Of a stretch of 64,000 bases of DNA, positions 14,414 to 62,566 are shown in pieces. Where the stretch lies: contig CACMYW010000001.1 in NCBI GenBank assembly GCA_902617955.1, positions 15,627-79,626 on the forward strand. The letters run 5' to 3'. Source of the stretch: an uncultured SAR86 cluster bacterium (GTDB lineage Bacteria; Pseudomonadota; Gammaproteobacteria; Magnimaribacterales; D2472). Numbering within the stretch: the first letter of the stretch is position 1; every line of letters begins with the position of its first letter. The translations under genes were made by a program, and so were the position numbers. Below the pieces are notes generated by a model that was given only the letters and a program-made list of their open reading frames with translations, was not told where the DNA came from and searched no databases.

Positions 14414-14441
14414 TTGACAAACGCAACAAAAACGTGACAAT
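14414..14441 (+). promoter_or_regulatory. Putative sigma70 promoter of the second TBDR gene
   Basis: Perfect -35 TTGACA, a 16-nt spacer, then GACAAT. The module TTTGACA-N13-CGTGACAATTT recurs upstream of the third TBDR. Confidence 0.5.
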
Positions 14442-14473
14442 TTCAATTAAATTTAAATAATTTGGGGAAAACT

Positions 14474-17685: not shown

Positions 17686-17713
17686 TTGACATTTGTTATA
17701 AAACCGTCACAAT
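17686..17713 (+). promoter_or_regulatory. Putative sigma70 promoter of the third TBDR gene
   Basis: TTGACA-N16-CACAAT, with the same 31-bp architecture as at 14413-14443. Confidence 0.5.
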
Positions 17714-17748
17714 TTGTTACTGTGTACTTAAATTTAAGGGATATAACT

Positions 17749-43621: not shown

Positions 43622-43683
43622 ATCTTTTTACTTAGTGCATGAAAAATTATAGCCTATAGGACTAACTATTTAGGACAACTATT

Positions 43684-44807: not shown

Positions 44808-44810
44808 GGT

Positions 44811-45815: not shown

Positions 45816-45874
45816 ATTTAAATTCCTTTAAATTATTGGTTATGATATCAGTTAAACCTAAAAGGATAAAAGAT

Positions 45875-46639: not shown

Positions 46640-46643
46640 TTAA

Positions 46644-47522
46644 ATGTCTAATTTTAAAGAAAAGGTTGCTGTAATTACAGGTGGAGCCTCTGGAGTAGGA
46701 TATGCAATCGGGGCTGCTCTAGCAAAAGAAGGTGCAAAAGTAGTTTTAAGCGATATCGAATCTTCTGCGCTAGAATCTGCAAAAGCTAATTTAGAGAAAG
46801 ATGGCTTAAAAGTGGACATCAAGCAAGCTGATGTTTCCGATCATAACTCAATGGTTGCACTTAATAAATTTGTTACTTCTGAAGTTGGTGATGTTCAAAT
46901 GCTTTTTAATAATGCTGGTGTCGCACCTGCTGAATTGCAATCGATTTGGGATACAAATCCAAATGATTGGAATTGGGCTTACGGGGTCAATGTTATGGGC
47001 ATTGTTCACGGTTTGCAGGCTTTCATACCTGACATGTTAAGTCATGGAAAAGATGCAAATGTAATAAACACTTGTTCTGGTAACGGAGCATTTATCAACT
47101 TGCCAAGTACTCCAATTTATACCTCATCAAAAGCTGCAGTTTCGAGTATAAGTGAGGTTTTAAAACTTCAATTAGATCAATCAGAAAGTAACATAAAAGT
47201 ATCTATCTTATTTCCTGGTCCTCATACTGTTAGAACTAACCTCTTTTCTGCTGAAAGAAATAGGCCTGAGGAGCTGGCCAGAGATCCAAATGCACCTGAG
47301 CACCCAATTTCCTCTGTTGAGGATATGGTTGATATGATGAAATCAATGGGTGTTGAAATGGAAACTACTACTCCCGATGAGGTAGCTGAATTTTGTTTAG
47401 CTGAACTGAAGAAAGGACAGTATTGGATAAATCCTGCAAATGAGAAATCAGAACAAGCTTTCAAAGACAGGGTTGATTCTATCTTAAGCAGGGGTGACTT
47501 ACCTAATCCAAATATTTTTTAG
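46644..47522 (+). CDS. Short-chain dehydrogenase/reductase (SDR)
   Basis: TGGASGVG cofactor motif, NNAG, and catalytic YTSSK. Confidence 0.88.
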   Translation: MSNFKEKVAVITGGASGVGYAIGAALAKEGAKVVLSDIESSALESAKANLEKDGLKVDIKQADVSDHNSMVALNKFVTSEVGDVQMLFNNAGVAPAELQSIWDTNPNDWNWAYGVNVMGIVHGLQAFIPDMLSHGKDANVINTCSGNGAFINLPSTPIYTSSKAAVSSISEVLKLQLDQSESNIKVSILFPGPHTVRTNLFSAERNRPEELARDPNAPEHPISSVEDMVDMMKSMGVEMETTTPDEVAEFCLAELKKGQYWINPANEKSEQAFKDRVDSILSRGDLPNPNIF

Positions 47523-48754
47523 TTTAAATTAGTTTCAACTTCAAGGATCGTCATTCTTCTTGCGTTATGATGATCATAGTCATAATCCATTTTTCCAGAA
47601 AGGCTCAAATTTGGAAATCTAGTAAATAATTCTTTTAACATGACTTCTGTCTGTGATCTTACTAACGTAACCCCAATACAGTAATGTGGACCTTGTCCAA
47701 AACTTATACTGTTGTCATGGCTTCTATGAATATTAAATGTGTTTGCGTCTTCATATGCAGCTGGATCTAACCCAGCAGTACTAGTAATTAGTTGTACCAT
47801 TTCACCCTTTTTAACACTAACACCAAGAATTTCAAGATTCTCAGATGCGTATCTCGCTAGACCAGTTTTTCCAGATGATTCATAACGTAAGGTCTCTGAG
47901 ATGGCGTTTTGTATTAGGCTTTCATCATTCTTTAGCTCAGCTAGTTGCTCAGGATGTGATAACAAAGCTCTTATTAAATAGCTATGTAAGTCAACAGCAG
48001 TATCAGATCCTGCTCCTAAAACAGCTCCGATTAATGCACACATCTCCCAATTTGATAGTTTTTCGCCATCTTCCTCCGCTGTTATGAGAGTAGATAAAAA
48101 ATCATCTGATGGGTTCTTTCTCTTTTCATCTATTAGCTCATTTAGCAGATCAAGCCCTGCAGGCACTCCAGCAATTGCTTGAGCTCTTTCTTCAGGTGTC
48201 AACATTGGATTGATGCCCCTAACAACTCCATAAGCTAAGGAGTCAAAAATTGGGAATTTATCCCTTGGAATCCCAACCAAACTTGCAATAGCTTGCGTTG
48301 GGATAATTTCAGCAATTTCAGTTGCAAAATTAAATCTTTCAGGCTTTCCGATTTCATCAAACCTCTCCTTAACCAGCTTTGTAAAACGAACTTTCATCTG
48401 TTCCATGATTCGAGGCGAAAATGCAGGAAGCGCAAGCTTTCTTAATCTTAAGTGATTAGATCTGTTTAAAAAAAATAAATTATTGTTCATTAATTTTTCA
48501 AAAGCATCCATCTCAGAGAGGTCTTTCTTAGGAGGCGCATGTTCCCATAGGTTAAAGTCAGTAGAGAGTCTTCTATCAAGTAAACAGTCAGTAATATTTT
48601 TATTGCCAGTAACTAACCATGCCGACCATGCATTAAATCTAGCTATCGGATACTCTTTAACCAGCTTCTCAATTGTTGGTTTTGGATCATCTATGAAATT
48701 CTTTGAGGATGGATCAAAGAAATGATCTACTGTAAGCTCTTCAATATTTAACAT
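47519..48754 (-). CDS. Cytochrome P450
   Basis: Haem-thiolate loop FGQGPHYCIG, ExxR (ETLR) and I-helix GAGSDT. Confidence 0.93.
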   Translation of the reverse strand: MLNIEELTVDHFFDPSSKNFIDDPKPTIEKLVKEYPIARFNAWSAWLVTGNKNITDCLLDRRLSTDFNLWEHAPPKKDLSEMDAFEKLMNNNLFFLNRSNHLRLRKLALPAFSPRIMEQMKVRFTKLVKERFDEIGKPERFNFATEIAEIIPTQAIASLVGIPRDKFPIFDSLAYGVVRGINPMLTPEERAQAIAGVPAGLDLLNELIDEKRKNPSDDFLSTLITAEEDGEKLSNWEMCALIGAVLGAGSDTAVDLHSYLIRALLSHPEQLAELKNDESLIQNAISETLRYESSGKTGLARYASENLEILGVSVKKGEMVQLITSTAGLDPAAYEDANTFNIHRSHDNSISFGQGPHYCIGVTLVRSQTEVMLKELFTRFPNLSLSGKMDYDYDHHNARRMTILEVETNLN

Positions 48755-48770
48755 GTTGTCATGATAATCT

Positions 48771-49004
48771 ATGAAAACCTTTGAGGAAAGCGGAATTACT
48801 TGTCTGGATTTGCATGGAGTTAAGCATGACAGTGTTCCTATTGAAGTAATTGATTTTTGTTATCAATATCAAGATAAATTGCCACTCAAAATCATATGCG
48901 GCAATAGTAAAAAGATGATGGATATTTGCATGAATGAGCTTTCTAAGAATGGAATTTTTTTTGAAATCAAAAGATATGGCATAATAATTGTGTTAAAAAT
49001 ATAA
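48771..49004 (+). CDS. Small stand-alone Smr-like domain protein (degenerate)
   Basis: 77 aa. LDLHG opens the domain, followed by a KIICGNSKK region where Smr has hGxG, and a C-terminal GIIIVLKI. The assignment is tentative. Confidence 0.4.
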   Translation: MKTFEESGITCLDLHGVKHDSVPIEVIDFCYQYQDKLPLKIICGNSKKMMDICMNELSKNGIFFEIKRYGIIIVLKI

Positions 49005-49035
49005 TTTTAAAAAAAATAATTAGTGGGGAAAAACT

Positions 49036-51303
49036 ATGAATTTTAAACAAATTACCTTGTCAATAGTATTTATTGCAACCTTTTCTATTGCTACTTCAGC
49101 TGATGAGCCTGTAGGTGTAGTCCAATCTGAAAGCGTTAATCAGTCAAGTAATTCAGTCTCATCATTTGATCAAACTATGGAAGCAAGATCAGTAGGTGGA
49201 ATTGAAGAAGTGGTTGTAACTGCCCAAAAAAGAGAGGAATCTCTTCAGGATACGCCAATAGCATTAACTGCTATAACCGAATCTACAATTGAAGATCTAG
49301 ATATTCAGAATGTTGTTGATATGGCTGGTATTTCACCAAACGTCATGCTTGTAGAGACTCCTTCGAATAATACCTCAGCTACGATAGCTATGCGTGGTGG
49401 AGTTACCATTAACCCTGCAATTACATGGGAGCCTACTGTTGGTGTATACCTTGATGGTGTTTATCTTGGTAAAACTCAAGGCGCGATATTTGATGTTGTT
49501 GATTTAGAAAGGGTAGAGATTTTAAGGGGCCCTCAGGGAACTTTGTATGGAAGGAATACATTAGGTGGAGCAATAAACTTAATTTCTAAGAAACCTTCCG
49601 GCTCTGGTACAGAATTTAAGTCCACGATTGGTGATTATGGACTGCGTCAATTCCAGCTTGTTAGTGATTTGAAGCTCGGTGATAACACCTTTGGTAAGGT
49701 TGTTATGAACAAAAAAGATCGTGGTGGGTATGTGAAAAACTTCGTAAGTCCATTTGGACCCCCGCAAGGCGTTGTGCCAACAGCTGCACCCACTTTAAAT
49801 GATCTAGATACGATTGATGCAGAGGGCTACAGAGTAAATCTTTCTTGGAATTCAGATGTAAGTTCGCTTGATTTTGCCATGGATTACAATAGACAAAATA
49901 ATACACCGCCATTTGCTCAACTTGGTAATACCATACCTAATTGGAGCACGGTTTTTGGTGTTGGTGCTTCAGCTCTTACTGGCGGCTTAAAATTATGGCC
50001 AATCGAGCTTTTTACCTCAAAGGATAGAGAGAAAGTTGCTCATATTAATGAAAATACTTTCGAAACTTCTAAAGTTGAAGGGACTTCTCTAACATATTCT
50101 CGTGATCTTAGCTTTGGAACTGTTAAAGCAATAATTGCAAAAAGAGAAACAACATGGTCTGACAATCTTGACCTAGATGGAGGACCTTTCCCAATTGCCA
50201 ATACCTCAAGATTTACAACTTATGAATCAGACACTGTTGAAATTCAACTAACTGGTCAGAGAAATAATCTTAATTATGTTCTTGGGTACTACAGCCTTAA
50301 GGATGAAGCATACACTTCAAACCCTCAGTCTTTCTTTGGTGGGGGCCAAGTATTTGCCCAAAATTACTCAGGTGATGGAGATAGTGAGGCATTTTATGGC
50401 CAATTTGAGTTAGCTGTTTCGGATAAAACAGATGTCACTGTAGGGGTAAGAAAAACAGAGGAAGATAAAGAGGGCTTTAAAGAATATGTCGGAGTAATTT
50501 CAGCTAACGGTAGCGGAAGCTTTGATGATACTACCGGTACCTTCATTGTTTCTCATGATATTAGTGAGTCTGCAAATATGTATTTCAAAGTTGCAGATGG
50601 GTTTAAGGCCGGTGGATTTAATGCAGAAAGCTCAAATCCATTTGCTGCTTCAGTACCATACGCACCTGAAACAGTTCAATCAACCGAGATAGGTTTTAAA
50701 GGAATTTTCTTTGATAACAGACTAATGCTCAATGCTGCCTACTTTGATAATGAGCACGAAGATATGCAGATCTCTTATTTTACTGCTGATGCTGCTGCTG
50801 CATCTGAAGTAATCAATAATTCTGCTGATATATCCGGTATTGAAATTGAAACAACTGCTTATCTTAACGATACAACAAAAATTATGATCAACTATGGGCA
50901 CCTTGATTCTGAATTCACAGGCGGTGCTGTTGCCAGTGATGGCTTTTTGCTTGAGCAGTTTCCTTATGCTCCTGAAAATAGTATTTATTTTTCAGTTGAA
51001 AAGGATTATGGAGCATATCGTGCTAGGTTGGATTATAGCCGTATCTCTGAGCATGCAATTTTTCCATATAATGGTAATGACCCAAGAGCTGATCTTACCA
51101 AGGTTGATTCAAGGGGAATCATTGATGTCAGATTATTAATGGATCCAAGTGAGGATATTAGTCTAACTTTTTGGATTAAAAATTTAGCTGATAAGAGCTA
51201 TATTGTTAACAATATTCCTTTTGGTCCTGCATTTGGTCAACTTACTCTTGACTATTATGGTGCACCAAGAACATTAGGTTTTGATTTTAGGTATAAATTC
51301 TAA
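49036..51303 (+). CDS. TonB-dependent receptor (755 aa class)
   Basis: Signal peptide, TonB box EEVVVTAQKREESLQDTP, plug motif GTLYGRNTLGGAINLISK, C-terminal RYKF. SD GGGGA. Confidence 0.9.
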   Translation: MNFKQITLSIVFIATFSIATSADEPVGVVQSESVNQSSNSVSSFDQTMEARSVGGIEEVVVTAQKREESLQDTPIALTAITESTIEDLDIQNVVDMAGISPNVMLVETPSNNTSATIAMRGGVTINPAITWEPTVGVYLDGVYLGKTQGAIFDVVDLERVEILRGPQGTLYGRNTLGGAINLISKKPSGSGTEFKSTIGDYGLRQFQLVSDLKLGDNTFGKVVMNKKDRGGYVKNFVSPFGPPQGVVPTAAPTLNDLDTIDAEGYRVNLSWNSDVSSLDFAMDYNRQNNTPPFAQLGNTIPNWSTVFGVGASALTGGLKLWPIELFTSKDREKVAHINENTFETSKVEGTSLTYSRDLSFGTVKAIIAKRETTWSDNLDLDGGPFPIANTSRFTTYESDTVEIQLTGQRNNLNYVLGYYSLKDEAYTSNPQSFFGGGQVFAQNYSGDGDSEAFYGQFELAVSDKTDVTVGVRKTEEDKEGFKEYVGVISANGSGSFDDTTGTFIVSHDISESANMYFKVADGFKAGGFNAESSNPFAASVPYAPETVQSTEIGFKGIFFDNRLMLNAAYFDNEHEDMQISYFTADAAAASEVINNSADISGIEIETTAYLNDTTKIMINYGHLDSEFTGGAVASDGFLLEQFPYAPENSIYFSVEKDYGAYRARLDYSRISEHAIFPYNGNDPRADLTKVDSRGIIDVRLLMDPSEDISLTFWIKNLADKSYIVNNIPFGPAFGQLTLDYYGAPRTLGFDFRYKF

Positions 51304-51319
51304 AGCCTTTTTTATTCGA

Positions 51320-51353
51320 GCCAGTTAATTTCGTATTAACTGGCTAATTTTTT
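51320..51353 (+). terminator. Rho-independent terminator
   Basis: 10-bp stem GCCAGTTAAT / ATTAACTGGC with loop TTCGT, followed by TAATTTTTT. Confidence 0.7.
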
Positions 51354-51355
51354 AT

Positions 51356-52522
51356 ATGCAAAATAATTGGGAAGACATTCTTTTATTTGATGAGCAACTC
51401 TCTGAGGAGGAGAGGATTATTCAAAGAAATATTCGTGAATATTGTCAGAACTCCTTGATGCCAAGAATTCTTGAGGCTAACCGAGATGAGGTATTTCATA
51501 AAGAAATTTATCAAGAGCTTGGCGAGCTAGGAATGCTTGGTCCTACAATTCATGGATATGGTTGCGCGGGTATTGGTTATGTTGCATATGGCTTGATTAC
51601 CAGAGAAATTGAAAGGGTTGATTCTAGTTATCGATCTGCAATGAGCGTTCAATCATCATTATCGATGTATGCAATCTATAGATTTGGATCAGATGATCAA
51701 AAAAAGAAATATTTACCAGAAATGGCCAAAGGAAAATTAATTGGATGCTTTGGTTTAACTGAGCCCGATGCGGGCTCAGATCCTGGAAGCATGAAGACAA
51801 TTGCTAAAAAAACTGATGGTGGATATAAATTGTCAGGCTCTAAGACATGGATAACGAATGCCCCTATTGCAGACATTTTTGTAATATGGGCAAAAGACGA
51901 ACAGGGAATTCTCAGAGGCTTTATTGCAGAAAAAGATGATAAAAATATTAGTACTGCCAAATTGGATGGTAAGTTTGCTCTTCGTGCATCGACAACAGGG
52001 CAAGTTTTCATGGATGAACTTTTCATTCCCGATGAGAGGGTTCTACCAAACGTACAAAGCTTCAAGGGCCCATTTTCGTGCCTGAATTTAGCAAGATATG
52101 GTATTTCATGGGGAGTTATTGGTGCAGCTGAATTCTGCTGGAAGGCTGCAAGACAATACACCCTTGATCGTGATCAATTTGGCGAACCGTTAGCTGCTAA
52201 ACAACTCATACAAAAAAAGCTTGCAGATATGCAGTCAGAAATCACACTTGCATTGCAGGCTAGTTTGAGGGTTGGCAGATTAATGGACGAAGATAAAATG
52301 ATTCCAGAAATGATTTCGCTCGTTAAAAGAAATAATTGTGGAAAAGCATTAGATATTGCTAGAACTGCCCGTGACATGCATGGTGGCAATGGTGTCATCG
52401 ATGAGTATCACGTAATAAGGCATACCATGAACCTTGAAGCCGTAAATACTTACGAAGGTACCCATGATGTTCATTCACTTATTTTAGGAAACTTTCAAAC
52501 CGGAATAGCTGCATTTAAATAA
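51356..52522 (+). CDS. gcdH: Glutaryl-CoA dehydrogenase (acyl-CoA dehydrogenase family)
   Basis: 388 aa with the GCDH-type N-terminus ([20 protein letters not shown]) and the ACAD middle/C-terminal domains. Confidence 0.8.
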
Positions 52523-52525
52523 GAT

Positions 52526-52981
52526 ATGGCAGAAAAATATTCAGAATCCTCAGCTAAGTTTGGCAAGTTTGTAATTCGGATCTTTTCGAAGCTCCAAGCA
52601 CCTATTTTTTTGATGTCTAAAGGCAAGATATGGAATAAGTGGCCTGGTGGTTTTCCAGTAATGGTTGTAAAAACTATTGGTGCTAGAACAAAAAAAGTTA
52701 GAAATATTCCGCTAATACATGTTCATAAAGATGGAAATCCAATTTTAGTTGCCTCTCTAGGAGGAATGCCAAAAAATCCAAGCTGGTATTACAACGTTAA
52801 AGCAAATCCAAAAGTTGAAGTAACGACTCGCAACAGTCATGGAACTTTTATTGCAAGGCAAGTGTCAAAAGATGAGAAATCAACACTCTGGCCAACTATT
52901 TGTGAGACATATCCCGACTATCAAACCTATCAAAATAACACTGATAGAGATATTCCAGTGTTTATTTGTGATCCTGCGTAA
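52526..52981 (+). CDS. DUF385 / deazaflavin-dependent nitroreductase-like (DDN family) protein
   Basis: Family motif NPSWYYNVKANPKVEV in a split beta-barrel-sized protein of 151 aa. Confidence 0.65.
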   Translation: MAEKYSESSAKFGKFVIRIFSKLQAPIFLMSKGKIWNKWPGGFPVMVVKTIGARTKKVRNIPLIHVHKDGNPILVASLGGMPKNPSWYYNVKANPKVEVTTRNSHGTFIARQVSKDEKSTLWPTICETYPDYQTYQNNTDRDIPVFICDPA

Positions 52982-53001
52982 ATGTAAAGTATACTTTACA
53001 T
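52982..53001. promoter_or_regulatory. Perfect 20-bp palindrome (candidate operator) ahead of the ABC exporter operon
   Basis: ATGTAAAGTA|TACTTTACAT: all 10 pairs are complementary. It fills most of the 29-nt intergenic gap, and its centre contains the -10-like TATACT. Confidence 0.5.
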
Positions 53002-53010
53002 CCAAAATTT

Positions 53011-53697
53011 ATGAGTATAATTAAAACCGATAATTTGGTCCGTCATTTTACTGTTGGAACTCAAACTGTTGAAGCTCTAAGAGGGGTTTCACTTGATATC
53101 GAAAAAGGAGAGTTTGTAGCAATAATGGGCCCATCAGGTTCAGGTAAATCTACTTTAATGAATATCATTGGTTGCTTGGATAGTCCTACCAGCGGAACAT
53201 ATTACCTAAACAATAAAAATGTAAGCACGCTTAATGATGATGCTCTTGCATTAATTAGGAATCATGAGATTGGATTTGTATTTCAAAATTTCCATTTATT
53301 GGCAAGAAACACAGCTTTAGACAACGTCATGTTGCCATTGAAATATGCAGGAATAGATAAGTCTGAGCAGGAAGAAATTGCTATGGAGGTAATAAAATCA
53401 GTTGATCTTGAATCTAGAGCTCATCACCAACCCTCAGAATTATCTGGAGGCCAACAACAAAGAGTTGCCATTGCAAGAGCATTAGTTAATAAGCCATCCA
53501 TTCTATTTGCTGATGAACCTACTGGAAATCTTGATAGCAAGACGGGTGATGATGTTATGAATCTCTTTAAAAATCTTCATAAACAAGGCCAAACCATTAT
53601 TGTAATTACCCATGAAATAGAGGTTGCAAATCAAGCTGAGAGAATAATATCTATAAAAGACGGTAAAATATTCGAGGATCAAAAGGTATCAAAATGA
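53011..53697 (+). CDS. ABC transporter ATP-binding protein (MacB/LolD class)
   Basis: Walker A GPSGSGKST, signature LSGGQQQR, Walker B ILFADEPT. Confidence 0.92.
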   Translation: MSIIKTDNLVRHFTVGTQTVEALRGVSLDIEKGEFVAIMGPSGSGKSTLMNIIGCLDSPTSGTYYLNNKNVSTLNDDALALIRNHEIGFVFQNFHLLARNTALDNVMLPLKYAGIDKSEQEEIAMEVIKSVDLESRAHHQPSELSGGQQQRVAIARALVNKPSILFADEPTGNLDSKTGDDVMNLFKNLHKQGQTIIVITHEIEVANQAERIISIKDGKIFEDQKVSK

Positions 53698-54884
53698 AGA
53701 ATAAAATATTATCTTTGTTAATAATTTCAATTTTCCTAGTAAGTTGTGGGGGTGGCTCCAGTGCTGAAGAGGAGTTTAAGTTTTATTCAAAAAAAGAGGT
53801 TGATACGCAACAGCTTGATTTGACCGTTGAAGCTTCAGGGACTGTTGAGGCAATTTCTTCTATTGAGATTAAGTCTAAAGCCTCAGGAGAGATATTATAT
53901 TTGGGAGCAGAAATAGGAGACTACATAGAAAAAGGTCAAGTGTTAGCAAGAATTGATCAAAGGACGCCAAAAAATAATCTTGAGCAAGCATCTGCTGATT
54001 TAGACGTAGCAAAGGTAAGGTTACAAAACGCTGAAAGCCAATTTCTTAGATCAGAAACACTCCACAAGGAGGGGAGCATTTCTGATAAAGCTTTTGAAGA
54101 TGCTCAAGAATCTTTTTCTTCAGCAAAATCTCAATACGTAAGATCTAATGTTTACTTAGAAAATGCAAAAATAGCGCTTGATGATACCCTCGTTCGATCA
54201 CCGATTAGTGGAACTATTATTTCAAGGGCAGCAGAAGTTGGCCAAGTTATAACTTCTCCAACCTCAGCAGTAGGCGGAGGAACTCTTTTAATGGAAATGG
54301 CTGATTTAAATCAAGTAAGAGTCAGAGCACTGATCGATGAGATAGATATTGGCAAGATTACTATTGGTCAGGAAGTTACTTTAAAAGTTTCAGCTTATAG
54401 GGATAAAAAATTTACAGGAATAGTTTCAAAGATCGAGCCACAGGCAAAAGAGGAGCAAAACGTTACTACCTTCCCTGTATTGATTGATATTAAAAATGAG
54501 AATAATTTACTACTAATCGGGATGAATACTGATGTTGAAATTGAAATTTTAAATGAACAAGTTGCTCTAGCACTCCCTTCAGGATCTCTTAGAACAAGAA
54601 GAGATGTTACAACAGTTGCTATGCTTTTAGGGCTTGATGATGTTCAAATTAATTCATTTCTTGAGAAGAAAGTTGAGGGTGAAGGGTTTACTTCTTTTAT
54701 AGTTTTTAAAGAAACAAATAAGGGACCACAAATGCAATGGGTTAAAGTTGGTAAAACTGATCTTAACTATGTCGAACTGAAAGAGGGACTTAATAAAAAT
54801 GATATTGTTTATGTGCTACCAAGTGAGGGATTAATTAAATCGCAACAAAGATTCTCAGAACGATTACGTAATAGGTTCAGCTAA
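53694..54884 (+). CDS. Periplasmic adaptor (membrane-fusion protein, MacA/HlyD family), lipoprotein
   Basis: Lipobox LVSC, coiled-coil hairpin region, beta-barrel domain. Overlaps the ATPase gene by 4 nt. Confidence 0.85.
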   Translation: MKNKILSLLIISIFLVSCGGGSSAEEEFKFYSKKEVDTQQLDLTVEASGTVEAISSIEIKSKASGEILYLGAEIGDYIEKGQVLARIDQRTPKNNLEQASADLDVAKVRLQNAESQFLRSETLHKEGSISDKAFEDAQESFSSAKSQYVRSNVYLENAKIALDDTLVRSPISGTIISRAAEVGQVITSPTSAVGGGTLLMEMADLNQVRVRALIDEIDIGKITIGQEVTLKVSAYRDKKFTGIVSKIEPQAKEEQNVTTFPVLIDIKNENNLLLIGMNTDVEIEILNEQVALALPSGSLRTRRDVTTVAMLLGLDDVQINSFLEKKVEGEGFTSFIVFKETNKGPQMQWVKVGKTDLNYVELKEGLNKNDIVYVLPSEGLIKSQQRFSERLRNRFS

Positions 54885-56092
54885 TGCTTGTCCAAGAGTC
54901 TATAGGTACTGCAGTCGATGCGATTAAAGCCAATAAATTAAGATCAATTTTAACAACGCTTGCCATTATTATTGGAACTGCAGCGGTCATTGCAATGGTG
55001 GCTATGGGTTCAAGTGCTCAACAGGCACTTAATGATTCTATTACTGATCTTGGAGCAAGAACAATATATGTTTATCCCAGCTCTTCTAAACAAGGAGCAA
55101 CAAATACAAGTAAGGTACCGCTAGATATTAAAGATGCCATCGCTCTTTCAAAGGACGGAGAGATACCTTGGCAGATTGCTCCTGAGATTCGAGGTTCAAA
55201 ACAAGTTAAATTTAAAAGTGAGAATGCAAGCCTACAAATTGTTGGCAGTACGCCTGATTTTTTTTCTATCCGTGGGTATGAATTAGATTCTGGTACCACT
55301 TTTACTGAAAATGACAGTTTAGCCAGAAAAAGGGTTGTTGTGTTAGGTTCAAAAGTAGCTAATGAACTCAAAACATCATCCAGAGCTCTCTTAAACAACG
55401 AAATCTTAATTAATAATATTTCATTCAAAGTCATTGGCACCATTAAAGAAGAGGGTGCAGGCTGGGGACCTAATCCTGATGAGCAGATCTATACGCCCAT
55501 ATATACCGCCTCTGATAGGATCTTTGGGAGGGAGACAATCGGATCCATTAATGTAAATTTTCCTGTAGAGTACTCCACAGAGGAGGTAATGATTGCCATC
55601 GAAAGGATTCTGAGAAGAGAGCATGACATTGGGCCTGGTGAAACTAATAATTTTAGTATTAGAGACTGGGGTCAAGCACTAGATCTTCAAAGACAAGCTA
55701 CATCTATCTTTTTTGCCCTAATAATTGGTATTGCTTCAATAAGTCTTTTAGTGGGGGGCATTGGGGTGATGAATATTATGTTAGTTTCAGTGACTGAGAG
55801 GACTAGGGAAATTGGTTTAAGGAAGGCGCTAGGCGCTACACAAAACACAATTTTGCTTCAGTTTATTATCGAAGCAATCACCTTATGCCTAATCGGAGGT
55901 TTTATTGGAGTTATTCTTGGAACCTCAATATACTTTCTAATAGCTTTTTTGCAAGAATGGCCGTTAGTATTTCCTCTAACCGCGATAATCGGCTCAGTGA
56001 CTTTTTCTGCAATGGTAGGACTATTTTTTGGAATTTGGCCTGCCAGAAGAGCAGCGAAACTTGATCCAGCAATATCACTAAGGTACGAATAG
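54884..56092 (+). CDS. ABC transporter permease (MacB-type: periplasmic domain + FtsX 4-TM)
   Basis: 402 aa: one TM, a large periplasmic domain, and a C-terminal FtsX-like region with TERTREIGLRKALGA. Confidence 0.88.
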   Translation: MLVQESIGTAVDAIKANKLRSILTTLAIIIGTAAVIAMVAMGSSAQQALNDSITDLGARTIYVYPSSSKQGATNTSKVPLDIKDAIALSKDGEIPWQIAPEIRGSKQVKFKSENASLQIVGSTPDFFSIRGYELDSGTTFTENDSLARKRVVVLGSKVANELKTSSRALLNNEILINNISFKVIGTIKEEGAGWGPNPDEQIYTPIYTASDRIFGRETIGSINVNFPVEYSTEEVMIAIERILRREHDIGPGETNNFSIRDWGQALDLQRQATSIFFALIIGIASISLLVGGIGVMNIMLVSVTERTREIGLRKALGATQNTILLQFIIEAITLCLIGGFIGVILGTSIYFLIAFLQEWPLVFPLTAIIGSVTFSAMVGLFFGIWPARRAAKLDPAISLRYE

Positions 56093-57190
56093 ATGAAAGT
56101 TGCTCAATTACTTCCAGAATTAAATTTTGGAGGTGTTGAACGTGGAACAGTAGATCTTGCCAATTTTTTAGTTTCTCAAGGTCATGATGCTCTCGTTATT
56201 TCCGCAGGTGGAGTTCTTGAAGGTGAATTAGACACTGAGGTAAAAAGTTTACAAATTCCCATTTCAAAGAAATCCTTGTCTGCTTTGATGCAGTTTAAAT
56301 CTCTTCAGAAAATTCTTCTTAAAGAGAGACCAGATATTGTTCACGTTCGATCAAGATTTCCAGCCTGGATATATCTCTTGGCCACAAGAGGAATGCCAAA
56401 CCATCAAAAGCCTGTCTTAGTGTCCACCTTTCATGGTCTATACAGTAAGCCATGGTATAGCCAATCAATGGCTAAAAGTGATTCAATTATTAGTATTTCT
56501 AATACCGTAAAGCAATACATTAAAGATAATTACAGAATTTCAACACAAAATATAGTCAATATTTATAGGGGTTGTGACACAAAAAAATTTAATCAAATTC
56601 CTCTTGAAAGTAGCTGGCTTGATAAATGGTTTGCAGACTTTCCGCAAACAATAAATAAAAAAATCTTATTGATGCCTGGCAGGATCACCTCATGGAAGGG
56701 CATTGAAACATTTATTGAACTAATCCATCGGCTGAAAGATCCATCATTGATTGGCATTGTCATGGGGCCTGTTGCAAAGAATAAAAAAACTTATTTTGAA
56801 AAGCTCAAAACATTGGCATCAGACCTTAATCTGGATGAGACTAAAATTCTATTTTGTGATGGGAGATCTGATATTGAAAATGTATATAAAATTTCATCTA
56901 TTGTTTTTAACTTATCATCAAAGGCTGAACCGTTTGGTAGAACAATGATTGAAGCTGCTGCTTGCGGCAGTTCAGTGGTGGGATGGGATTACGGAGGGGT
57001 AAAAGAGTCCCTATCTCTTCTTCAATCTAATGGCCTTACTAAACTTAATTCCATGGATGATTTAGAAGTTAAAGTAAGACGTTTATTAGAGGTTCCAGAC
57101 CAGCTAATTTTAATTAAAGAGTTCACAAAAGAGCATCAAACCAACGCAACACTAAAAGTTTATAAGGAATTGCTTAATACCGAATTGTAA
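56093..57190 (+). CDS. Glycosyltransferase family 4
   Basis: GT-B fold with an ELNFGGVERGT N-terminus and the Ex7E motif EPFGRTMIE. Its ATG directly abuts the permease stop codon. Confidence 0.85.
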   Translation: MKVAQLLPELNFGGVERGTVDLANFLVSQGHDALVISAGGVLEGELDTEVKSLQIPISKKSLSALMQFKSLQKILLKERPDIVHVRSRFPAWIYLLATRGMPNHQKPVLVSTFHGLYSKPWYSQSMAKSDSIISISNTVKQYIKDNYRISTQNIVNIYRGCDTKKFNQIPLESSWLDKWFADFPQTINKKILLMPGRITSWKGIETFIELIHRLKDPSLIGIVMGPVAKNKKTYFEKLKTLASDLNLDETKILFCDGRSDIENVYKISSIVFNLSSKAEPFGRTMIEAAACGSSVVGWDYGGVKESLSLLQSNGLTKLNSMDDLEVKVRRLLEVPDQLILIKEFTKEHQTNATLKVYKELLNTEL

Positions 57191-58146
57191 ATTTTACTAA
57201 CCTTTTTTGCAGAGCTTTCCACTGTATAGGATTCAAATATTCGCTCCTTAATTGCACTTACATTAAGACTTTTTGCTAGGGGCACAAAACTTCTTATTAA
57301 AAAAATAATCTCATCTTCATTATTGGGATCAGCTAAGACCTCTTGCGGAAATAATTCACCCATAATACCTACATTGGTTCCAAATACTGGTAAGTTAAAA
57401 GCCGCTGCCTCTAGAGCAACTCTGGGCCCTCCCTCTCTTAAGCTGGTAATAATTAAACCTTTTGCTTTTTTATAAATATTACCCAGTTCCTGGGAATTGA
57501 CCTCTGATCTGATGGTGATTTGTTTGGCTAGGTTGTTATTCTCAATGATAGTTAGCAAGTTATTTTTTTCTTGGCCATCTCCGATGATTTCAAGTTTTTC
57601 ATTGATACCTTTCCATGCGTGAATCAATAAATCAAATCGCTTAATTTTTTCCAGCCTTCCAACCGCAATAAAGTTTCCATCTCTCGAGGAATTAAGTATT
57701 TGTAATTTCGGATTTACCCAATTAGCTATTACCTCTGCTTCAGGATAAGTTTTCTTTAAGAGCTCATTTACAATAATTGTTTTCCTAAAGCCATTTGTAG
57801 CAACAGGTCTTTTTTTGTTGGCATGAACTGTTGCAATTAATTCTACTTTTGTAACCCAGCTTACCCATCGACCTAAGAGGATTGATTTTGAACCATGGCA
57901 GTGAAGTATTTGAATTTTATGATCTTTTATTAATTTTCGAAGTTTGAAAAGAGCAAAGAGATTGAACCTGAATTTATTTGGAAATACCTGGAATCTATGA
58001 TTTTGAAAATGAGGCTCTAACGTTTTATCTGCAAAGATAAAAATTTCATAATCAGAATTATTTGCTAGTGTTGATGTTAATTCATGAACATGTTGCTCAA
58101 TGCCTGAAAAATTTTTGCTACAAATTAAATGCGCAATGTTATTCAT
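57160..58146 (-). CDS. Glycosyltransferase family 4
   Basis: GT-B fold with Ex7E motif EGGPRVALE. Its 3' end overlaps the convergent GT4 gene by 31 nt. Confidence 0.8.
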   Translation of the reverse strand: MNNIAHLICSKNFSGIEQHVHELTSTLANNSDYEIFIFADKTLEPHFQNHRFQVFPNKFRFNLFALFKLRKLIKDHKIQILHCHGSKSILLGRWVSWVTKVELIATVHANKKRPVATNGFRKTIIVNELLKKTYPEAEVIANWVNPKLQILNSSRDGNFIAVGRLEKIKRFDLLIHAWKGINEKLEIIGDGQEKNNLLTIIENNNLAKQITIRSEVNSQELGNIYKKAKGLIITSLREGGPRVALEAAAFNLPVFGTNVGIMGELFPQEVLADPNNEDEIIFLIRSFVPLAKSLNVSAIKERIFESYTVESSAKKVSKIYNSVLSNSL

Positions 58147-59062
58147 TTATTAGTCTTTTAATTTTGAAAGCAATTTTCTCGACTTCAGCTAATGGCTCGA
58201 AACCTGGATTTGGAGATATCATATGACTGATTTCACCCGATTGATCAAATACATCTCTTTTTTGAACAATACCAATGCGTTTTTCATTAAGTAATTCATT
58301 GCTAATTCTTTGATGCTTATTACTTTTAATTCTGAACCAAGGTTTTTTAGAAGATTTGCTGGTTTGCAATAAATAAGTATCACCGTAACTGGATAGGCTC
58401 TCAAATATCATGCTAATGCTGTCAGGTGTAATGAACTTTTTCGAAGCCAAGACAAGGTTTGCGTTAAAAAAATTAAAATCAGTATCCTTAGAGTCATGCA
58501 GTTTAATATTTTTAAAACAAGAAATTTCAGACCATACATCATCGGGCGTTCTTCTCGAATTAAAAATAGAAATTTTAAACTTTTGGTGTGTATCAATGAT
58601 GTATTTTAAATTATCTATTAAGATCCTTTTTTCAAACGGCACATTATTTATTGGACCGCCAATGCATGCCACAAGTTTATTATTTTCAGGTTTATGAAGG
58701 GATGTTTTACAAAGGCTACCTTTAAACAGCAAGGAGTTTATTGGCATCTTTCTATCGTGGTAGTCATGTTCTGGGGCTACAACTAGATCAAACTTTTTAG
58801 CATTAAAAGTTGGCCTAAGAACAGCGATAATAGTAGTATCATGAGAGTTAGAGAGTAGTTTTTTTTGTTGCAGTAATGCTTTATGCGCTCTATGCCCAAC
58901 CCCTATTAAGATCAGCCTATTTGAGCTTGGTTTAAGTTTGTCTAAGTTGTCTATAGAGCATTCTGATGATACACAATTAAGCTCATTAACAAGAGATTGA
59001 AAGAGAATATTTCCTTGGTTAGAATGACCTGGCCTTTGGTCAAATATATGAATAACTTCCAT
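58139..59062 (-). CDS. ELM1/DUF1022-family protein (putative glycosyl/nucleotide-sugar enzyme)
   Basis: The N-terminus FDQRPGHSNQGN and the internal ACIGGP resemble bacterial ELM1-family proteins found next to LPS-core GT genes. Assigned from memory of the family. Confidence 0.45.
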   Translation of the reverse strand: MEVIHIFDQRPGHSNQGNILFQSLVNELNCVSSECSIDNLDKLKPSSNRLILIGVGHRAHKALLQQKKLLSNSHDTTIIAVLRPTFNAKKFDLVVAPEHDYHDRKMPINSLLFKGSLCKTSLHKPENNKLVACIGGPINNVPFEKRILIDNLKYIIDTHQKFKISIFNSRRTPDDVWSEISCFKNIKLHDSKDTDFNFFNANLVLASKKFITPDSISMIFESLSSYGDTYLLQTSKSSKKPWFRIKSNKHQRISNELLNEKRIGIVQKRDVFDQSGEISHMISPNPGFEPLAEVEKIAFKIKRLINE

Positions 59063-59117
59063 GCAATTGTTACATTGTTGTTTTACTAATGCCTTAAATT
59101 AACCTTACTATTCTACT

Positions 59118-59891
59118 ATGTCCAAACTTAAGTTTCGCTCAATATTTCTCTCAGATATTCATTTGGGCTCAAAAGGGTGCCAATCAAAGCTCCTGCTTGA
59201 TTTTCTAGATAAGCATTCTTGTGAAAACTTATTTTTAGTAGGAGACATCATAGATTGCTGGAGATTGTCTTCAAAACTTTATTGGCCGCAAGAACATAGC
59301 AATGTATTCAATAAGTTCTTATCGATGTCTAAAGAGGGTACAAAAGTTTTCTTTATTACCGGCAACCATGATGATTTTTTAAGGAGATATCAACCTCTTC
59401 AATTAGGCAATATCGAATTAACTGAAGAATATGAATATCAAACTCTCAAAAATAAAAAAATGTTAATCATACATGGGGATCAATTTGATATTGTCACTAC
59501 TTATGGAAGGCATTTGGCTTTGCTAGGAGATTGGATTTATCAGTTTTTACTTGTCTTGAACCGCTACCTTAATTTCTTTAGATCAAGGCTTGGGTATGGT
59601 TACTGGTCTCTTTCAAATTATTTGAAACAGAAAGTTAAGGGTGCAGTAAATTTTATGTCTGATTATGAGATAAATGTTTCAAAGGAGTGTCAACGCAGAG
59701 GTTTTGATGGCGTTGTGTGTGGGCATATTCATAAAGCAGAAATTAAAAAAATTGAAACTTCTACTTACATGAATTGTGGTGATTGGGTTGAATCATGTAC
59801 CGCTCTCATTGAAGATGAGTCTGGAGATTTTAAAATTATCAGATGGGCTGACGAGCAAAGAGAAAAGATAAGATTACTCAAAGCCTCATGA
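59118..59891 (+). CDS. plcP: PlcP-type metallophosphoesterase (phospholipase C of phosphate-stress lipid remodelling; often mis-annotated LpxH)
   Basis: Metallophosphoesterase motifs SDIHLG, GDIID, GNHD, HGD and GHIH, plus the PlcP-type blocks GCQS..LLDFL, YWSLSNYLKQKVK and GDWVESCTAL. An ATGA overlap couples it to a GT4 gene. Confidence 0.7.
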   Translation: MSKLKFRSIFLSDIHLGSKGCQSKLLLDFLDKHSCENLFLVGDIIDCWRLSSKLYWPQEHSNVFNKFLSMSKEGTKVFFITGNHDDFLRRYQPLQLGNIELTEEYEYQTLKNKKMLIIHGDQFDIVTTYGRHLALLGDWIYQFLLVLNRYLNFFRSRLGYGYWSLSNYLKQKVKGAVNFMSDYEINVSKECQRRGFDGVVCGHIHKAEIKKIETSTYMNCGDWVESCTALIEDESGDFKIIRWADEQREKIRLLKAS

Positions 59892-60931
59892 AGATTTTAA
59901 TAATTACAGATGCTTGGTTTCCTCAGGTTAATGGAGTTGTCACCACATTATCTAATGTTACTTACCAATTAAGATCAAAAGGTCATTTAGTTGATATCAT
60001 TGAACCATCAAGATTTAAAACACTCCCACTTCCTGGTTATCGTGAGATAAGAATTAGCTTAAATCTAGGCGAATTGAAAAAAATTATTAAATTTAATAGG
60101 TACGATTCAATCCATATAGCTACTGAAGGACCTCTTGGCTTAATGGGGAGATATCTGTTAATTAAAAACAACCTTTCATTCACCACCGCAGTACATACAA
60201 AATTCCCAGAATATGTAAAAGCTAGAATCGGCTTACCTCTATCATGGGGTTATGGCTTGATGCGCTGGTTTCATGGTGCTGCTTTTCACAATCTAGTGAA
60301 TACTCAATCACACAAGGATGAATTAATATCATGGGACTTTAAGAATTTAGTTATGTGGGATAGAGCCATAGACCACACTATATTTAACGCAGATCATCCT
60401 AAGATTGAATTTTCTGAGCCCTACTTGCTTTATGCGGGTAGAATTGCAGTTGAAAAAAATATTGAATCTTTTTTAAAGCTGAAGACATCACAAAAGAAAG
60501 TAATAGTTGGCGATGGACCACAAAGGAAGGAACTTGAGAGGAAATATCCTGACGTAAAGTTTATAGGATATAAAAAAGATATCGAGCTAGCTAGGTGGTA
60601 TGCAGGTGCAGATGCCTTCGTTTTTCCCTCAAAAACAGATACATTCGGAATCGTTCTGCTTGAAGCATTAGCTTGCGGTACACCCATTGCTGCATATCCA
60701 GTAACCGGGCCCAAGGATTTAATTGTTAACGGAGTCAATGGATTTACTGATGATAACTTACTAAATGCAATTAATCAGGCTGTAAAAGTTTCTTCATCAG
60801 GTTGTATAGACTTTGCATCAAGCTTTACTTGGGATAAAGTTGCAGAACAATTTAAAAATGCATTAATTCCAAAAAGCCTTGAATCAAGTTACAAAAACAG
60901 CTCGAGACCTTATTTCTCAATATGGAGATGA
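59888..60931 (+). CDS. agt: Glycosyltransferase family 4, Agt-like (diacylglycerol glycosyltransferase)
   Basis: MKILIITDAWFPQVNGVV N-terminus and C-terminal TDTFGIVLLEALACG. Positioned immediately downstream of plcP. Confidence 0.65.
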   Translation: MKILIITDAWFPQVNGVVTTLSNVTYQLRSKGHLVDIIEPSRFKTLPLPGYREIRISLNLGELKKIIKFNRYDSIHIATEGPLGLMGRYLLIKNNLSFTTAVHTKFPEYVKARIGLPLSWGYGLMRWFHGAAFHNLVNTQSHKDELISWDFKNLVMWDRAIDHTIFNADHPKIEFSEPYLLYAGRIAVEKNIESFLKLKTSQKKVIVGDGPQRKELERKYPDVKFIGYKKDIELARWYAGADAFVFPSKTDTFGIVLLEALACGTPIAAYPVTGPKDLIVNGVNGFTDDNLLNAINQAVKVSSSGCIDFASSFTWDKVAEQFKNALIPKSLESSYKNSSRPYFSIWR

Positions 60932-61061
60932 TGCTGAATCTATAGCCATGCTAAGAGCAGCTGAGCATGCTGCAAACCTTAATCATTCTGAGTGGAAAAT
61001 ATGGGAGGAAGTTCTTAGTGTGGTTATTGAGCTACAAAATGCAAAACATTTAGATAGTTAA
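60879..61061 (+). CDS. Small conserved-looking hypothetical protein (60 aa)
   Basis: Helical-looking sequence (ARDLISQYGDDAESIAMLRAAEHA...WKIWEEVLSVVIELQ). It has a TTG start inside the agt 3' end, and its stop overlaps the rhomboid ATG (TAATG). Confidence 0.4.
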   Translation: MNQVTKTARDLISQYGDDAESIAMLRAAEHAANLNHSEWKIWEEVLSVVIELQNAKHLDS

Positions 61062-61816
61062 TGTTTTTCTTACCTCTTTTTGATGATAACCCAATAAAAA
61101 AAATACCTTGGGTAACTTATACAATTATTGGCTTAAATGTATTGGTATTTTTATTCCAGTCCAGTCTTAGCAGTAGCGAACTAGAAATATTTTTTAGAGA
61201 AAATGGATTTATCTCCGGAGAATTTTTCTCAAACTCAAGCCTGCTTTATTCAAATCTATACACATCCTTATTTATTCATGGGGGATTTTTTCATTTATTC
61301 TCAAATATGCTCTATTTATGGATTTTTGGCGATAATATTGAGGCTGAACTTGGATCAATTAAGTTTCTTATCTTTTACTTGGTCTGTGGCGTCATAGCCT
61401 CTATAGCCCAGGGAATCGTAGACCCTGATAGCTTAATACCTTTAATAGGCGCTAGTGGCGCAGTTGCCGGAATACTCGGTGCATATTTGATTTTATATCC
61501 AAGTGCAAATGTAAGAGTTTTTGTTTGGATTTTTATTTTTATCCAAATTATTAATGTCCCTGCCGGTATAGTTTTAGCAATATGGATTATTGGTCAGTTT
61601 TTTTCATTGGGATCCTCTATGTCCGATGGCGTTGCCTATATGGCACATGTTGCAGGATTCATGAGTGGCCTAATGTACATGTTTTTATTTAGGAAACGAG
61701 ATAAAGTTCAATCTACACATCACTCAAGGCCTTTTACAAGAACTTCTTTCAAGGAAGCCTATGATCAAAAGATTTATGATCGATCAAAATCAAAAGGTAT
61801 TAAGGATTACAACTAA
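61061..61816 (+). CDS. Rhomboid-family intramembrane serine protease
   Basis: Six TM segments, HxxxN (HLFSNM), catalytic GASGAVAG and a downstream His (AHVAGF). Confidence 0.88.
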   Translation: MFFLPLFDDNPIKKIPWVTYTIIGLNVLVFLFQSSLSSSELEIFFRENGFISGEFFSNSSLLYSNLYTSLFIHGGFFHLFSNMLYLWIFGDNIEAELGSIKFLIFYLVCGVIASIAQGIVDPDSLIPLIGASGAVAGILGAYLILYPSANVRVFVWIFIFIQIINVPAGIVLAIWIIGQFFSLGSSMSDGVAYMAHVAGFMSGLMYMFLFRKRDKVQSTHHSRPFTRTSFKEAYDQKIYDRSKSKGIKDYN

Positions 61817-61824
61817 TCCTTTTT

Positions 61825-62295
61825 ATGAAACCATCTTTTATCAAAACACCAATTGGAAGCTTTTTAGCTCATTTCAAGGATAGATACCTTATAAAATTGG
61901 AGTTGGTTAATTCAGATAAAAAATTATTTCTTGATCAAAATCTTCAAGAAACTATTAACCAGCTAACTAAAGGCAAGATTTCAGTTAACGAACTTCCTCT
62001 AAATATTAATAAATTAGAAGGGACTGAATTTCAAAAAAAAGTCTGGAAATCTCTTACTAAAATAAAATATGGAGGAACGTCTTCTTATAAGGAAGTAGCA
62101 GTATCCATTAATAATCCAAGTGCTGTTAGGGCAGTTGGCACAGCATGTAGATTAAATCCAATTCCGCTTATAATTCCATGTCATAGAGTATTAAGAACTG
62201 ATGGAAGTATCGGTAAATATGCTTTTGGAAAAAAAAATAAATACAAACTTTTAAAGCTAGAGAGTTATGAATCTCGAAACAGAAATAAGAAATAA
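61825..62295 (+). CDS. ogt: Methylated-DNA--protein-cysteine methyltransferase
   Basis: Active-site PCHRV and NPIPLIIPCHRVL. Confidence 0.9.
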   Translation: MKPSFIKTPIGSFLAHFKDRYLIKLELVNSDKKLFLDQNLQETINQLTKGKISVNELPLNINKLEGTEFQKKVWKSLTKIKYGGTSSYKEVAVSINNPSAVRAVGTACRLNPIPLIIPCHRVLRTDGSIGKYAFGKKNKYKLLKLESYESRNRNKK

Positions 62296-62566
62296 AGTCA
62301 TTGAAAAATTTCCCAATGCTATTTTAAACCTACAAAATGAAAGTCATATGCATTCGGTTCCAGAAAATTCTGAAACTCACTTTAAGTTAATTATTGCAGA
62401 TGATTCATTCATTGATACCCCTAGGGTTTTAAGGCATAAAATGGTCTTTTCTCAGCTTGGAGATTTAATGCAAAAATTTCATGCTCTTGCTCTTCATTGT
62501 TATACACATGAAGAACTCTCAAAACTAGAATCTGAGCCTGAGTCACCTGAGTGTGTAAAAAAATGA
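62267..62566 (+). CDS. bolA: BolA-family protein
   Basis: 99 aa with NESHMHSVP...HFKLIIADDSF...RHKMVF...HALALH, the BolA signature arrangement. Confidence 0.8.
   Translation: MNLETEIRNKVIEKFPNAILNLQNESHMHSVPENSETHFKLIIADDSFIDTPRVLRHKMVFSQLGDLMQKFHALALHCYTHEELSKLESEPESPECVKK

Follow-up and report, generated by a model that had tools for sequence, protein, structure and literature searches.

A MacB-type pump, a putative lipooligosaccharide-core glycosyltransferase block and an accessory plcP-agt pair at one locus of a SAR86 genome

The window analyzed here is a stretch of 64,000 nucleotides from contig CACMYW010000001.1 of an uncultured gammaproteobacterium of the SAR86 cluster, with a GC content of ~36%. 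SAR86 are among the most abundant heterotrophic bacteria of the surface ocean and are very hard to culture. The locus in question contains the genes of an ATP-binding cassette (ABC) pump, consisting of an ATPase, a membrane fusion protein (MFP) that serves as adaptor, and a MacB-type permease, followed without a spacer by a gene for a family GT4 glycosyltransferase (GT4_1). A second GT4 gene (GT4_2) and an ELM1-like gene are oriented convergently, and a plcP-like and an agt-like gene are transcribed divergently from these. This organization is read here, with moderate confidence, as three modules, namely a housekeeping MacB-type pump, a glycosyltransferase block for the core of lipooligosaccharide (LOS) and a putatively Pho-regulated plcP-agt accessory, which lie side by side through inherited synteny in a streamlined genome. 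The predicted genes and signals are as follows.

52966–52995: promoter-like sequence TTGTGA-18-TATACT, before the ATPase gene
52982–53001, no strand: perfect 20-bp palindrome ATGTAAAGTATACTTTACAT, filling the larger part of the 29-nt gap that precedes the ATPase gene
53011–53697, + strand: ABC ATPase gene, a MacB/LolD-like nucleotide-binding domain (PF00005) encoded as a separate gene
53694–54884, + strand: adaptor (MFP) gene for a predicted lipoprotein (TIGR01730), with a 4-nt overlap with the ATPase gene
54884–56092, + strand: MacB-type permease gene (PF12704 and PF02687), with a 1-nt overlap with the MFP gene
56093–57190, + strand: GT4_1, a GT4 glycosyltransferase gene (Glyco_transf_4/Glycos_transf_1), its ATG directly after the permease stop codon
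57160–58146, - strand: GT4_2, a GT4 glycosyltransferase gene, convergent with GT4_1 and overlapping it by 31 nt
58139–59062, - strand: ELM1-like gene of the KdoT family (PF06258, Mito_fiss_Elm1), with an 8-nt overlap with GT4_2
59067–59084, + strand: TTGTTAC-ATTG-TTGTTTT, a direct repeat resembling a Pho box, located 34 nt before the start codon of the plcP-like gene
59118–59891, + strand: gene for a PlcP-like metallophosphoesterase of the LpxH family (PF00149), divergent from the ELM1-like gene
59888–60931, + strand: agt-like GT4 gene (Glyco_transf_4/Glycos_transf_1), with a 4-nt overlap with the plcP-like gene

The permease stop codon TAG occupies positions 56090–56092 and the GT4_1 start codon begins at 56093, leaving a spacer of zero; a rhomboid gene, then ogt and then bolA lie 3′ of the agt-like gene. 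The open reading frame (ORF) map reproduces all of the ORFs, the overlaps and the TAG-ATG abutment described in an initial annotation of the locus, and the families named there for the ATPase, adaptor, permease, GT4 enzymes, ELM1-like protein and metallophosphoesterase agree with the Pfam and NCBIfam matches.

The pump components have clear family matches. The ATPase matches PF00005 at 3.5e-35, and its top NCBIfam match is to the N-terminal half of MacB (279.5 bits). The adaptor scores 145.7 bits against the HlyD/RND_mfp model TIGR01730 (cutoff 94.9) and contains a lipobox (LVSC) whose cysteine, Cys18, is invariant across five SAR86 orthologues (alignment A2). The permease has four transmembrane helices and a large periplasmic domain, with the MacB periplasmic core domain (PF12704, MacB_PCD; 2.9e-36, residues 21–241) located between the first two transmembrane helices (TM1 and TM2) and an FtsX-type transmembrane bundle (PF02687, FtsX; 4.5e-19, residues 283–395) at the C-terminus. 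It matches the solved MacB chains in the PDB at 1e-59 to 1e-61 versus 2.5e-4 for LolC, and scores 260.6 bits against the MacB profile versus 16.2 for DevC (cutoff 290.35) and 34.7 for LolCE (cutoff 362.45).

The models for characterized pumps are not reached. The MacB equivalog NF007826 describes a fused ATPase-permease with a cutoff of 966, compared with 279.5 for the ATPase and 260.6 for the permease, and the adaptor scores 80.2 bits against the MacA model (cutoff 342). The DevBCA models score 16.2 for DevC (cutoff 290.35), 50.5 for DevB (129) and 194.8 for DevA (295.8). A LolCDE system would have a LolC/E permease and no MFP; here the lolCE score is 34.7 of the required 362.45 and the pump genes include an MFP. 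A protein listed by NCBI under SAR86 cluster bacterium SAR86E shares 64% identity with the permease, and the exact sequence of the window permease is not on record in the look-up. Among representatives at 50% identity the SAR86 permeases form a group of their own, followed by a next match at 46% and then a broad plateau at 35–40% that includes fused MacB proteins; the cyanobacterial permeases, 36–39% identical to that of the window, are generic MacB-like proteins and not DevC. No OEP/TolC gene is present among the window ORFs scanned. By these domain and profile matches the pump is assigned to the MacB-type (type VII ABC) tripartite class, and it is not a predicted orthologue of any pump with a known substrate.

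The pump can be compared with three known systems. As in MacAB-TolC of Escherichia coli, Acinetobacter baumannii and Aggregatibacter actinomycetemcomitans, the permease combines a MacB periplasmic core with an FtsX-type bundle, a cognate ABC ATPase and an MFP are encoded beside it, and the mechanism is likely shared by analogy, that is, mechanotransmission acting on a substrate taken from the periplasmic side (PMC5985334). Unlike in MacAB-TolC, the SAR86 ATPase and permease are separate genes in the order ATPase-MFP-permease, the adaptor is a predicted lipoprotein instead of having a transmembrane-helix anchor, the window ORFs scanned include no TolC-like gene, and the pump genes run at their 3′ end straight into a GT4 gene. 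DevBCA-HgdD of Anabaena, the precedent for glycolipid export, is likewise a member of the MacB superfamily with an adaptor and is located near glycolipid-synthesis genes; however, its gene order differs, the SAR86 neighbors are GT4 and KdoT-like genes rather than polyketide-type hgl genes, and the SAR86 proteins fall far below the DevA, DevB and DevC cutoffs. The Spr0693-0694-0695 and YknXYZ systems of Firmicutes share the split between ATPase and permease and a YknX-type adaptor (chain 5XU1_M is matched at 3.2e-41, and YknX beta-barrel Pfam families match the adaptor), although the gene order is different and the SAR86 host is Gram-negative, such that an outer-membrane partner is presumably needed.

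The ELM1-like protein of the glycosyltransferase block matches PF06258 at 1.1e-25 (90.9 bits, cutoff 27), and its homologues are named 'mitochondrial fission ELM1 family protein' in the sources. In A. baumannii an ELM1-like protein, KdoT (A1S_2903/GtrOC1), transfers a third 3-deoxy-D-manno-oct-2-ulosonic acid (Kdo) from CMP-Kdo onto Kdo2-lipid A, after which GnaT (LpsB), a GT4 enzyme, adds N-acetylglucosaminuronic acid (GlcNAcA); a kdoT deletion is complemented by homologues that include one from Rickettsia (PMC10936431, PMC12856342). An SRRT motif is invariant in the KdoT family, and R180 matters for KdoT activity (PMC12856342 and its supplement). The SAR86 protein contains NSRRTP at residues 167–172, with SRRT at 168–171, close to its position in KdoT (178–181). 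S168, R169, R170 and T171 show no variation among 38 homologues with identities of only 30–40%, and SRRT is present in 35 of 37 orthologues at this locus. An AlphaFold model (pLDDT 90.5, pTM 0.86) has a GT-B fold with two Rossmann-like domains, and Foldseek comparison with the PDB returns GT-B enzymes (UDP-GlcNAc 2-epimerases, SenB, MurG and MGD1) at E values of ~1e-6 to 1e-5; sequence searches of the PDB with GT4_2 and the ELM1-like protein gave no useful match. The protein is therefore named here a putative transferase of CMP-Kdo or a related sugar in the LOS inner core.

The pairing of this PF06258 GT-B protein with a GT4 enzyme bearing an EX7E motif also resembles KdoT and GnaT. The SAR86 ELM1-like and GT4 genes overlap on one strand, and the SAR86 block differs in being adjoined by a MacB-type pump. 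The likeness to KdoT is one of family profile, published motif and fold.

GT4_1 contains the EX7E motif EPFGRTMIE and matches PDB entry 7MI0, a Rickettsia GT4 whose sequence is conserved throughout the Rickettsiaceae, at 1.1e-50 with ~40% identity. This similarity places it in a subfamily that is conserved among Rickettsiales. In the Rickettsiales contexts examined, the GT4_1 homologue has neither KdoT nor lipid A genes as neighbors, and these contexts thus give a core-LOS role no independent confirmation; literature searches on SAR86 lipopolysaccharide (LPS) genetics and on entry 7MI0 gave nothing relevant. In Rickettsia canadensis (L171; CP000409, 1–7179) the homologue is located ~1.8 kb from a lone YknX/MacA-type adaptor gene, which has no permease or ATPase gene beside it; with three more glycosyltransferase genes in the vicinity, the region faintly recalls the SAR86 order.

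The GT4 genes have weak and generic NCBIfam matches, to families of exopolysaccharide, teichuronic acid and glycogen type. Wzx/Wzy, Wza, ABC-2 polysaccharide export and sugar-nucleotide synthesis genes are absent from the block, and no lipid A or Kdo pathway genes were found in the window scans. Because the ELM1-like protein combines SRRT, PF06258 and a GT-B fold, GT4_1 is Rickettsia-like and polysaccharide exporter genes are absent, the block fits an LOS- or LPS-core type, with the enzymatic roles and the LOS substrate predicted from family membership.

Synteny was compared in a metagenome scan anchored on the adaptor, which returned 80 loci with adaptor identities of 58–98%; window proteins were mapped to these by tblastn, and a neighbor-joining tree was built from the adaptor and permease. 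The 61 informative loci form 36 clusters at 90% identity. In 30 of these the pump abuts the glycosyltransferase block, 24 with GT4_1 directly after the permease gene and six with GT4_2 or the ELM1-like gene convergent on the permease and GT4_1 absent; no glycosyltransferase gene is nearby in the other six. The exporter-glycosyltransferase junction to which the initial annotation drew attention thus recurs within SAR86 and across its deep lineages. Contigs with permease homologues at 78% and at 64–66% identity all have the order ATPase-MFP-permease-GT4, then the convergent GT4 and ELM1-like genes, with differing flanks. In the reverse direction, all three contigs found through ELM1-like homologues (30–33% identity) contain the pump beside the glycosyltransferase block.

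Within the block the ELM1-like gene is present in essentially every glycosyltransferase-linked locus, and GT4_1 or GT4_2 come and go. About ten loci have no GT4_1, and in the majority of them the permease and GT4_2 genes converge; GT4_2 is kept beside the ELM1-like gene in most SAR86 loci. Identities across loci are 27–53% for the glycosyltransferases versus 55–85% for the pump proteins, and such fast divergence is typical of surface-glycan genes. The loci with no glycosyltransferase gene nearby correspond to one monophyletic pump clade (L088, L114, L157, L161 and L167–L169) plus L142; their surroundings are of at least five kinds that bear no relation to each other (SNase/Msr, LeuA, DUF4345, DUF6644 and cyclase). 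Two loci contain broken genes, with the adaptor gene and GT4_2 fragmented in L004 (8800–13253) and the permease gene split in two in L167 (2226–3433); these breaks are probably frameshifts from assembly errors and not pseudogenes.

The upstream side of the pump is more variable. In clades W and X it is preceded by genes for a TonB-dependent receptor, an acyl-CoA dehydrogenase (ACAD) and an F420H2-quinone-reductase-like protein (F420H2_quin_red) with spacers of 0–33 nt. Locus L001 has a five-gene insertion upstream of the pump, clade X has different downstream genes, and most clade Y loci are without the upstream genes of W and X, although L129 and L136 have an ACAD gene there. In two further clade Y loci (L174 and L175, ~13050–14960) a TonB C-terminal-domain gene and a tetratricopeptide repeat (TPR) gene precede the pump, such that upstream neighbors are TonB-related both there and in the clade of the window (a TonB-dependent receptor), though the genes are different.

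The background outside SAR86 consists of 80 MacB-like loci listed from other phyla (34–45% identity) in a genome scan with the permease alignment, checked by tblastn and with profiles made from the GT4 and ELM1 sequences at the SAR86 loci. The closest among the matches listed are from Gemmatimonadota. A GT4 gene lies within 10 kb of only one of the 80, and an ELM1-like gene near none of those listed. With 30 of 36 SAR86 clusters versus 1 of 80 listed loci elsewhere, the adjacency of pump and glycosyltransferase genes is a conserved, SAR86-specific trait and not a one-off. The single exception is a locus of candidate division WOR-3 (L081, 10001–13062) in which an MFP-permease-ATPase set is followed directly by a GT4 gene.

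Gene spacing contributes little to the question of coupling. The median same-strand spacer in the window is 3 nt on a crude gene map, 20 of 33 same-strand pairs are no more than 5 nt apart, ~94% of the window is coding, and genes on opposite strands overlap as well. The zero spacer between permease and GT4_1 is on its own uninformative because tight spacing is the norm in this genome, and it was rejected as evidence of pump-glycosyltransferase coupling. Hairpin-plus-T-run terminators separate some units of the window, for example after TonB-dependent receptor genes; no sequence at all separates the permease gene from GT4_1, and in the 29 nt that lie between the ATPase gene and the F420H2-quinone-reductase-like gene before it no G+C-rich terminator was detected. 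GT4_1 is presumably co-transcribed with the pump since it directly follows the permease stop codon, and GT4_2 presumably with the ELM1-like gene given their 8-nt same-strand overlap. The palindrome before the ATPase gene overlaps the -10-like TATACT of the promoter-like site and is a possible repressor operator. Only the window and L091, a 98%-identical relative, contain this palindrome, and no regulator gene lies near it.

The third module is formed by the plcP-like and agt-like genes, for which these names are probable on profile matches. The PlcP-like protein contains a Metallophos domain (PF00149) with an LpxH-like best match, but scores 64.4 and 57.7 bits against LpxH models with cutoffs of 134 and 190, and matches solved gammaproteobacterial LpxH structures at 1e-14 to 1e-3. 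By these scores it is classed as an LpxH-family paralogue and not as an LpxH orthologue. LpxH was weighed as the identity of the plcP-like gene, since it would fit an LPS cluster, and was set aside on account of the very weak similarity to solved LpxH. A PlcP has been characterized in Pseudomonas aeruginosa, and LpxH, a separate lipid A enzyme, is the outgroup of PlcP trees (PMC9239053). The SAR86 protein is probably a phospholipase C for lipid remodeling. The agt-like GT4 has its best NCBIfam match to alpha-monoglucosyl-diacylglycerol synthase (1.5e-17), matches other lipid-acceptor GT4 families too, and is probably a diacylglycerol glycosyltransferase.

SAR86 single-cell genomes are reported to encode PlcP homologues, and the plcP-agt order is described as a 'type 2' arrangement (PMC4796936). 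As in the modules of SAR11 HTCC7211, Phaeobacter MED193, Agrobacterium and P. aeruginosa, an LpxH-family metallophosphoesterase gene is directly followed by a GT4 gene, and the Pho-box-like repeat upstream is a possible further likeness; the likeness to PlcP and Agt is one of profiles, gene order and published reports. The repeat before plcP is only suggestive. The pattern was chosen post hoc and has three matches in the window versus 1.7 expected, and no clear shared motif is seen in other lineages. The pattern search of the window found no such site before the pump, the site of the module being the one before plcP.

The distribution of the pair differs from that of the pump. An agt-like gene is adjacent only in the window and in L091, which is 98% identical and of the same species-level lineage. 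A plcP-like gene is adjacent in six loci besides the window, namely L091 and five distant loci (66–72% identity) that, unlike the known modules, have plcP here without agt. Most loci have no plcP-like gene at this position, among them L001 and L092, the nearest lineages apart from the window's own, and all of clade X; elsewhere the gene following the ELM1-like gene is a rhomboid, bolA, A24 peptidase or acyl-CoA dehydrogenase gene. The interval between the ELM1-like gene and bolA (window 59063–62566; compared in L001, L091, L115, L132, L144, L174 and L175) varies in content, with plcP, agt, rhomboid, ogt and a TM_HPP gene each present or absent, and the backbone on both sides is conserved. Because the content of this site varies across SAR86, plcP and agt are accessory genes at a variable site.

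A scenario consistent with these data has three separate parts. By analogy with MacAB-TolC, the pump would collect its substrate in the periplasm or at the periplasmic leaflet of the inner membrane and send it out through a channel in the outer membrane whose gene would lie elsewhere. The KdoT-family ELM1-like transferase and one or two GT4 enzymes would extend Kdo2-lipid A at the cytoplasmic face of the inner membrane, and this core extension would precede delivery by MsbA and the Lpt system. The plcP-agt genes would act in lipid remodeling under phosphate stress from their variable site between the kdoT-like gene and bolA; they are probably an add-on of some lineages, a pump dedicated to glycolipid export is improbable, and no link between these genes and the pump is expected. 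The adjacency of pump and glycosyltransferase genes would be an old arrangement, for which backbone synteny and the shared expression of housekeeping envelope genes offer the simplest account. The backbone itself, ELM1-BolA-MMPL-CoA transferase-TatD-4HBT, is as conserved as the pump-glycosyltransferase adjacency in two of the three glycosyltransferase-linked clades, and because such unrelated genes are equally syntenic the adjacency is weak evidence for a functional link.

Several observations weigh against so neutral an account and would favor a pump tied to the LOS-core-type block. Such a pump would handle a glycolipid made by GT4_1, GT4_2 and the KdoT-like enzyme, whether related to LOS or a different surface glycolipid, drawing it from the outer leaflet of the inner membrane and delivering it to the outer membrane or through it. 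The adjacency in 30 of 36 lineages and in all three ELM1-anchored contigs, set against 1 of 80 listed MacB-like loci elsewhere, could reflect selection for a functional link. In nearly all loci with GT4_1 the gene starts -8 to +3 nt from the permease stop codon, and this abutment is seen in three clades. Breakpoints are found on both flanks of the six-gene block and rarely inside it, and it is these rearrangements, rare in the interior, that argue most strongly for selection on the adjacency. Binding of the LPS core by E. coli MacA has been described, and the native MacAB substrate has been proposed to be a glycolipid (PMC5985334); DevBCA provides the precedent of a MacB-type pump that exports glycolipids. 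However, GT4_1 is dispensable in about ten loci, and a whole pump clade plus L142 persist without a nearby glycosyltransferase gene in at least five contexts. Unrelated backbone genes are equally syntenic, and LOS already has an export route in MsbA and Lpt. Such a tie is thus rather unlikely. If true, it would be the first comparative-genomic case of MacB-type glycolipid export outside cyanobacterial DevBCA, would fit the unexplained LPS-core binding of E. coli MacA, and would bear on the native substrate of MacB-type pumps.

A second alternative is that the pump works with the genes upstream of it and that GT4_1 is an operon passenger; for example, the pump might remove toxic intermediates that arise when lipids or hydrocarbons are broken down. 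In keeping with this, genes for the receptor, ACAD and F420H2_quin_red precede the ATPase gene in clades W and X at 0–33 nt with no terminator, and the window is rich in receptor, P450, Rieske and ACAD catabolic genes. Against these stand the promoter-like site and palindrome that the window has before its ATPase gene, and the variability of the upstream neighbors, with the insertion in L001 and none of the W and X genes in most clade Y loci; this arrangement is improbable.

It is similarly hard to credit a glycosyltransferase block that makes a non-LOS product (for instance a glycosylated protein, or a primer for capsule or exopolysaccharide) beside an unrelated pump. The weak and generic NCBIfam matches of the GT4 genes and the lack of lipid A or Kdo pathway genes in the window leave some room for it, but the ELM1-like protein bears the KdoT-family SRRT signature, the block is without Wzx/Wzy, Wza, ABC-2 export or sugar-nucleotide synthesis genes, and it is a near-universal core feature of the SAR86 lineages. 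The LPS-core cluster beside a pump that the initial annotation offered as its alternative is the better fit, given the KdoT-family SRRT protein and the Rickettsia-like GT4_1.

The favored proposal of that annotation, a pump dedicated to exporting PlcP/Agt glyco-glycerolipids (monoglycosyldiacylglycerol, MGDG, and glucuronic acid diacylglycerol, GADG) to the outer membrane under phosphate stress, is very improbable: although plcP is divergent from the ELM1-like gene in the window, L091 and the five distant loci (66–72%), the agt-like protein best matches lipid-acceptor GT4 families and DevBCA is a precedent, agt is confined to the window's own lineage and plcP is missing from the site in most loci while the pump belongs to a conserved core set, no Pho-box-like site precedes the pump, the neighboring glycosyltransferases are of LOS-core type, the permease is generic MacB-like with the DevA, DevB and DevC models far from reached, and general lipid bridges such as YhdP are a known anterograde route for glycerolipids (PMC10592960).

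On the reading of three modules joined by inherited synteny, the locus is mostly ordinary, with known gene families for every component, normal tight spacing and no support for a dedicated phosphate-stress glycolipid exporter. What is new is a probable core pathway of KdoT type in SAR86, which assigns to these bacteria a likely LOS inner-core pathway with a split Kdo pathway, and the position of a GT4 gene immediately behind the pump genes, which is conserved in SAR86 and specific to it.

Two further features of the window lie outside the three modules. The region upstream of the pump (41495–52981) contains a dense set of lipid- or steroid-type catabolic genes, including those for an old-yellow-enzyme/pyridine-nucleotide oxidoreductase, a SnoaL-like protein, a KshA-like Rieske oxygenase, an acetoacetate-decarboxylase-like protein, a short-chain dehydrogenase/reductase (SDR), a cytochrome P450, a TonB-dependent receptor, an acyl-CoA dehydrogenase and an F420H2-quinone-reductase-like protein. 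There are five TonB-dependent receptor genes in the whole window, two of which have Pho-box-like sequences nearby. One, with a likely true ATG near 17750, is preceded by TTGTTAY/CCGTCAC repeats at 11-nt spacing (17693–17721), and the other has a reverse-oriented match (14423–14440) located 34 nt before its ATG at 14474, the same distance as at the plcP site; both receptors may be phosphate-regulated.

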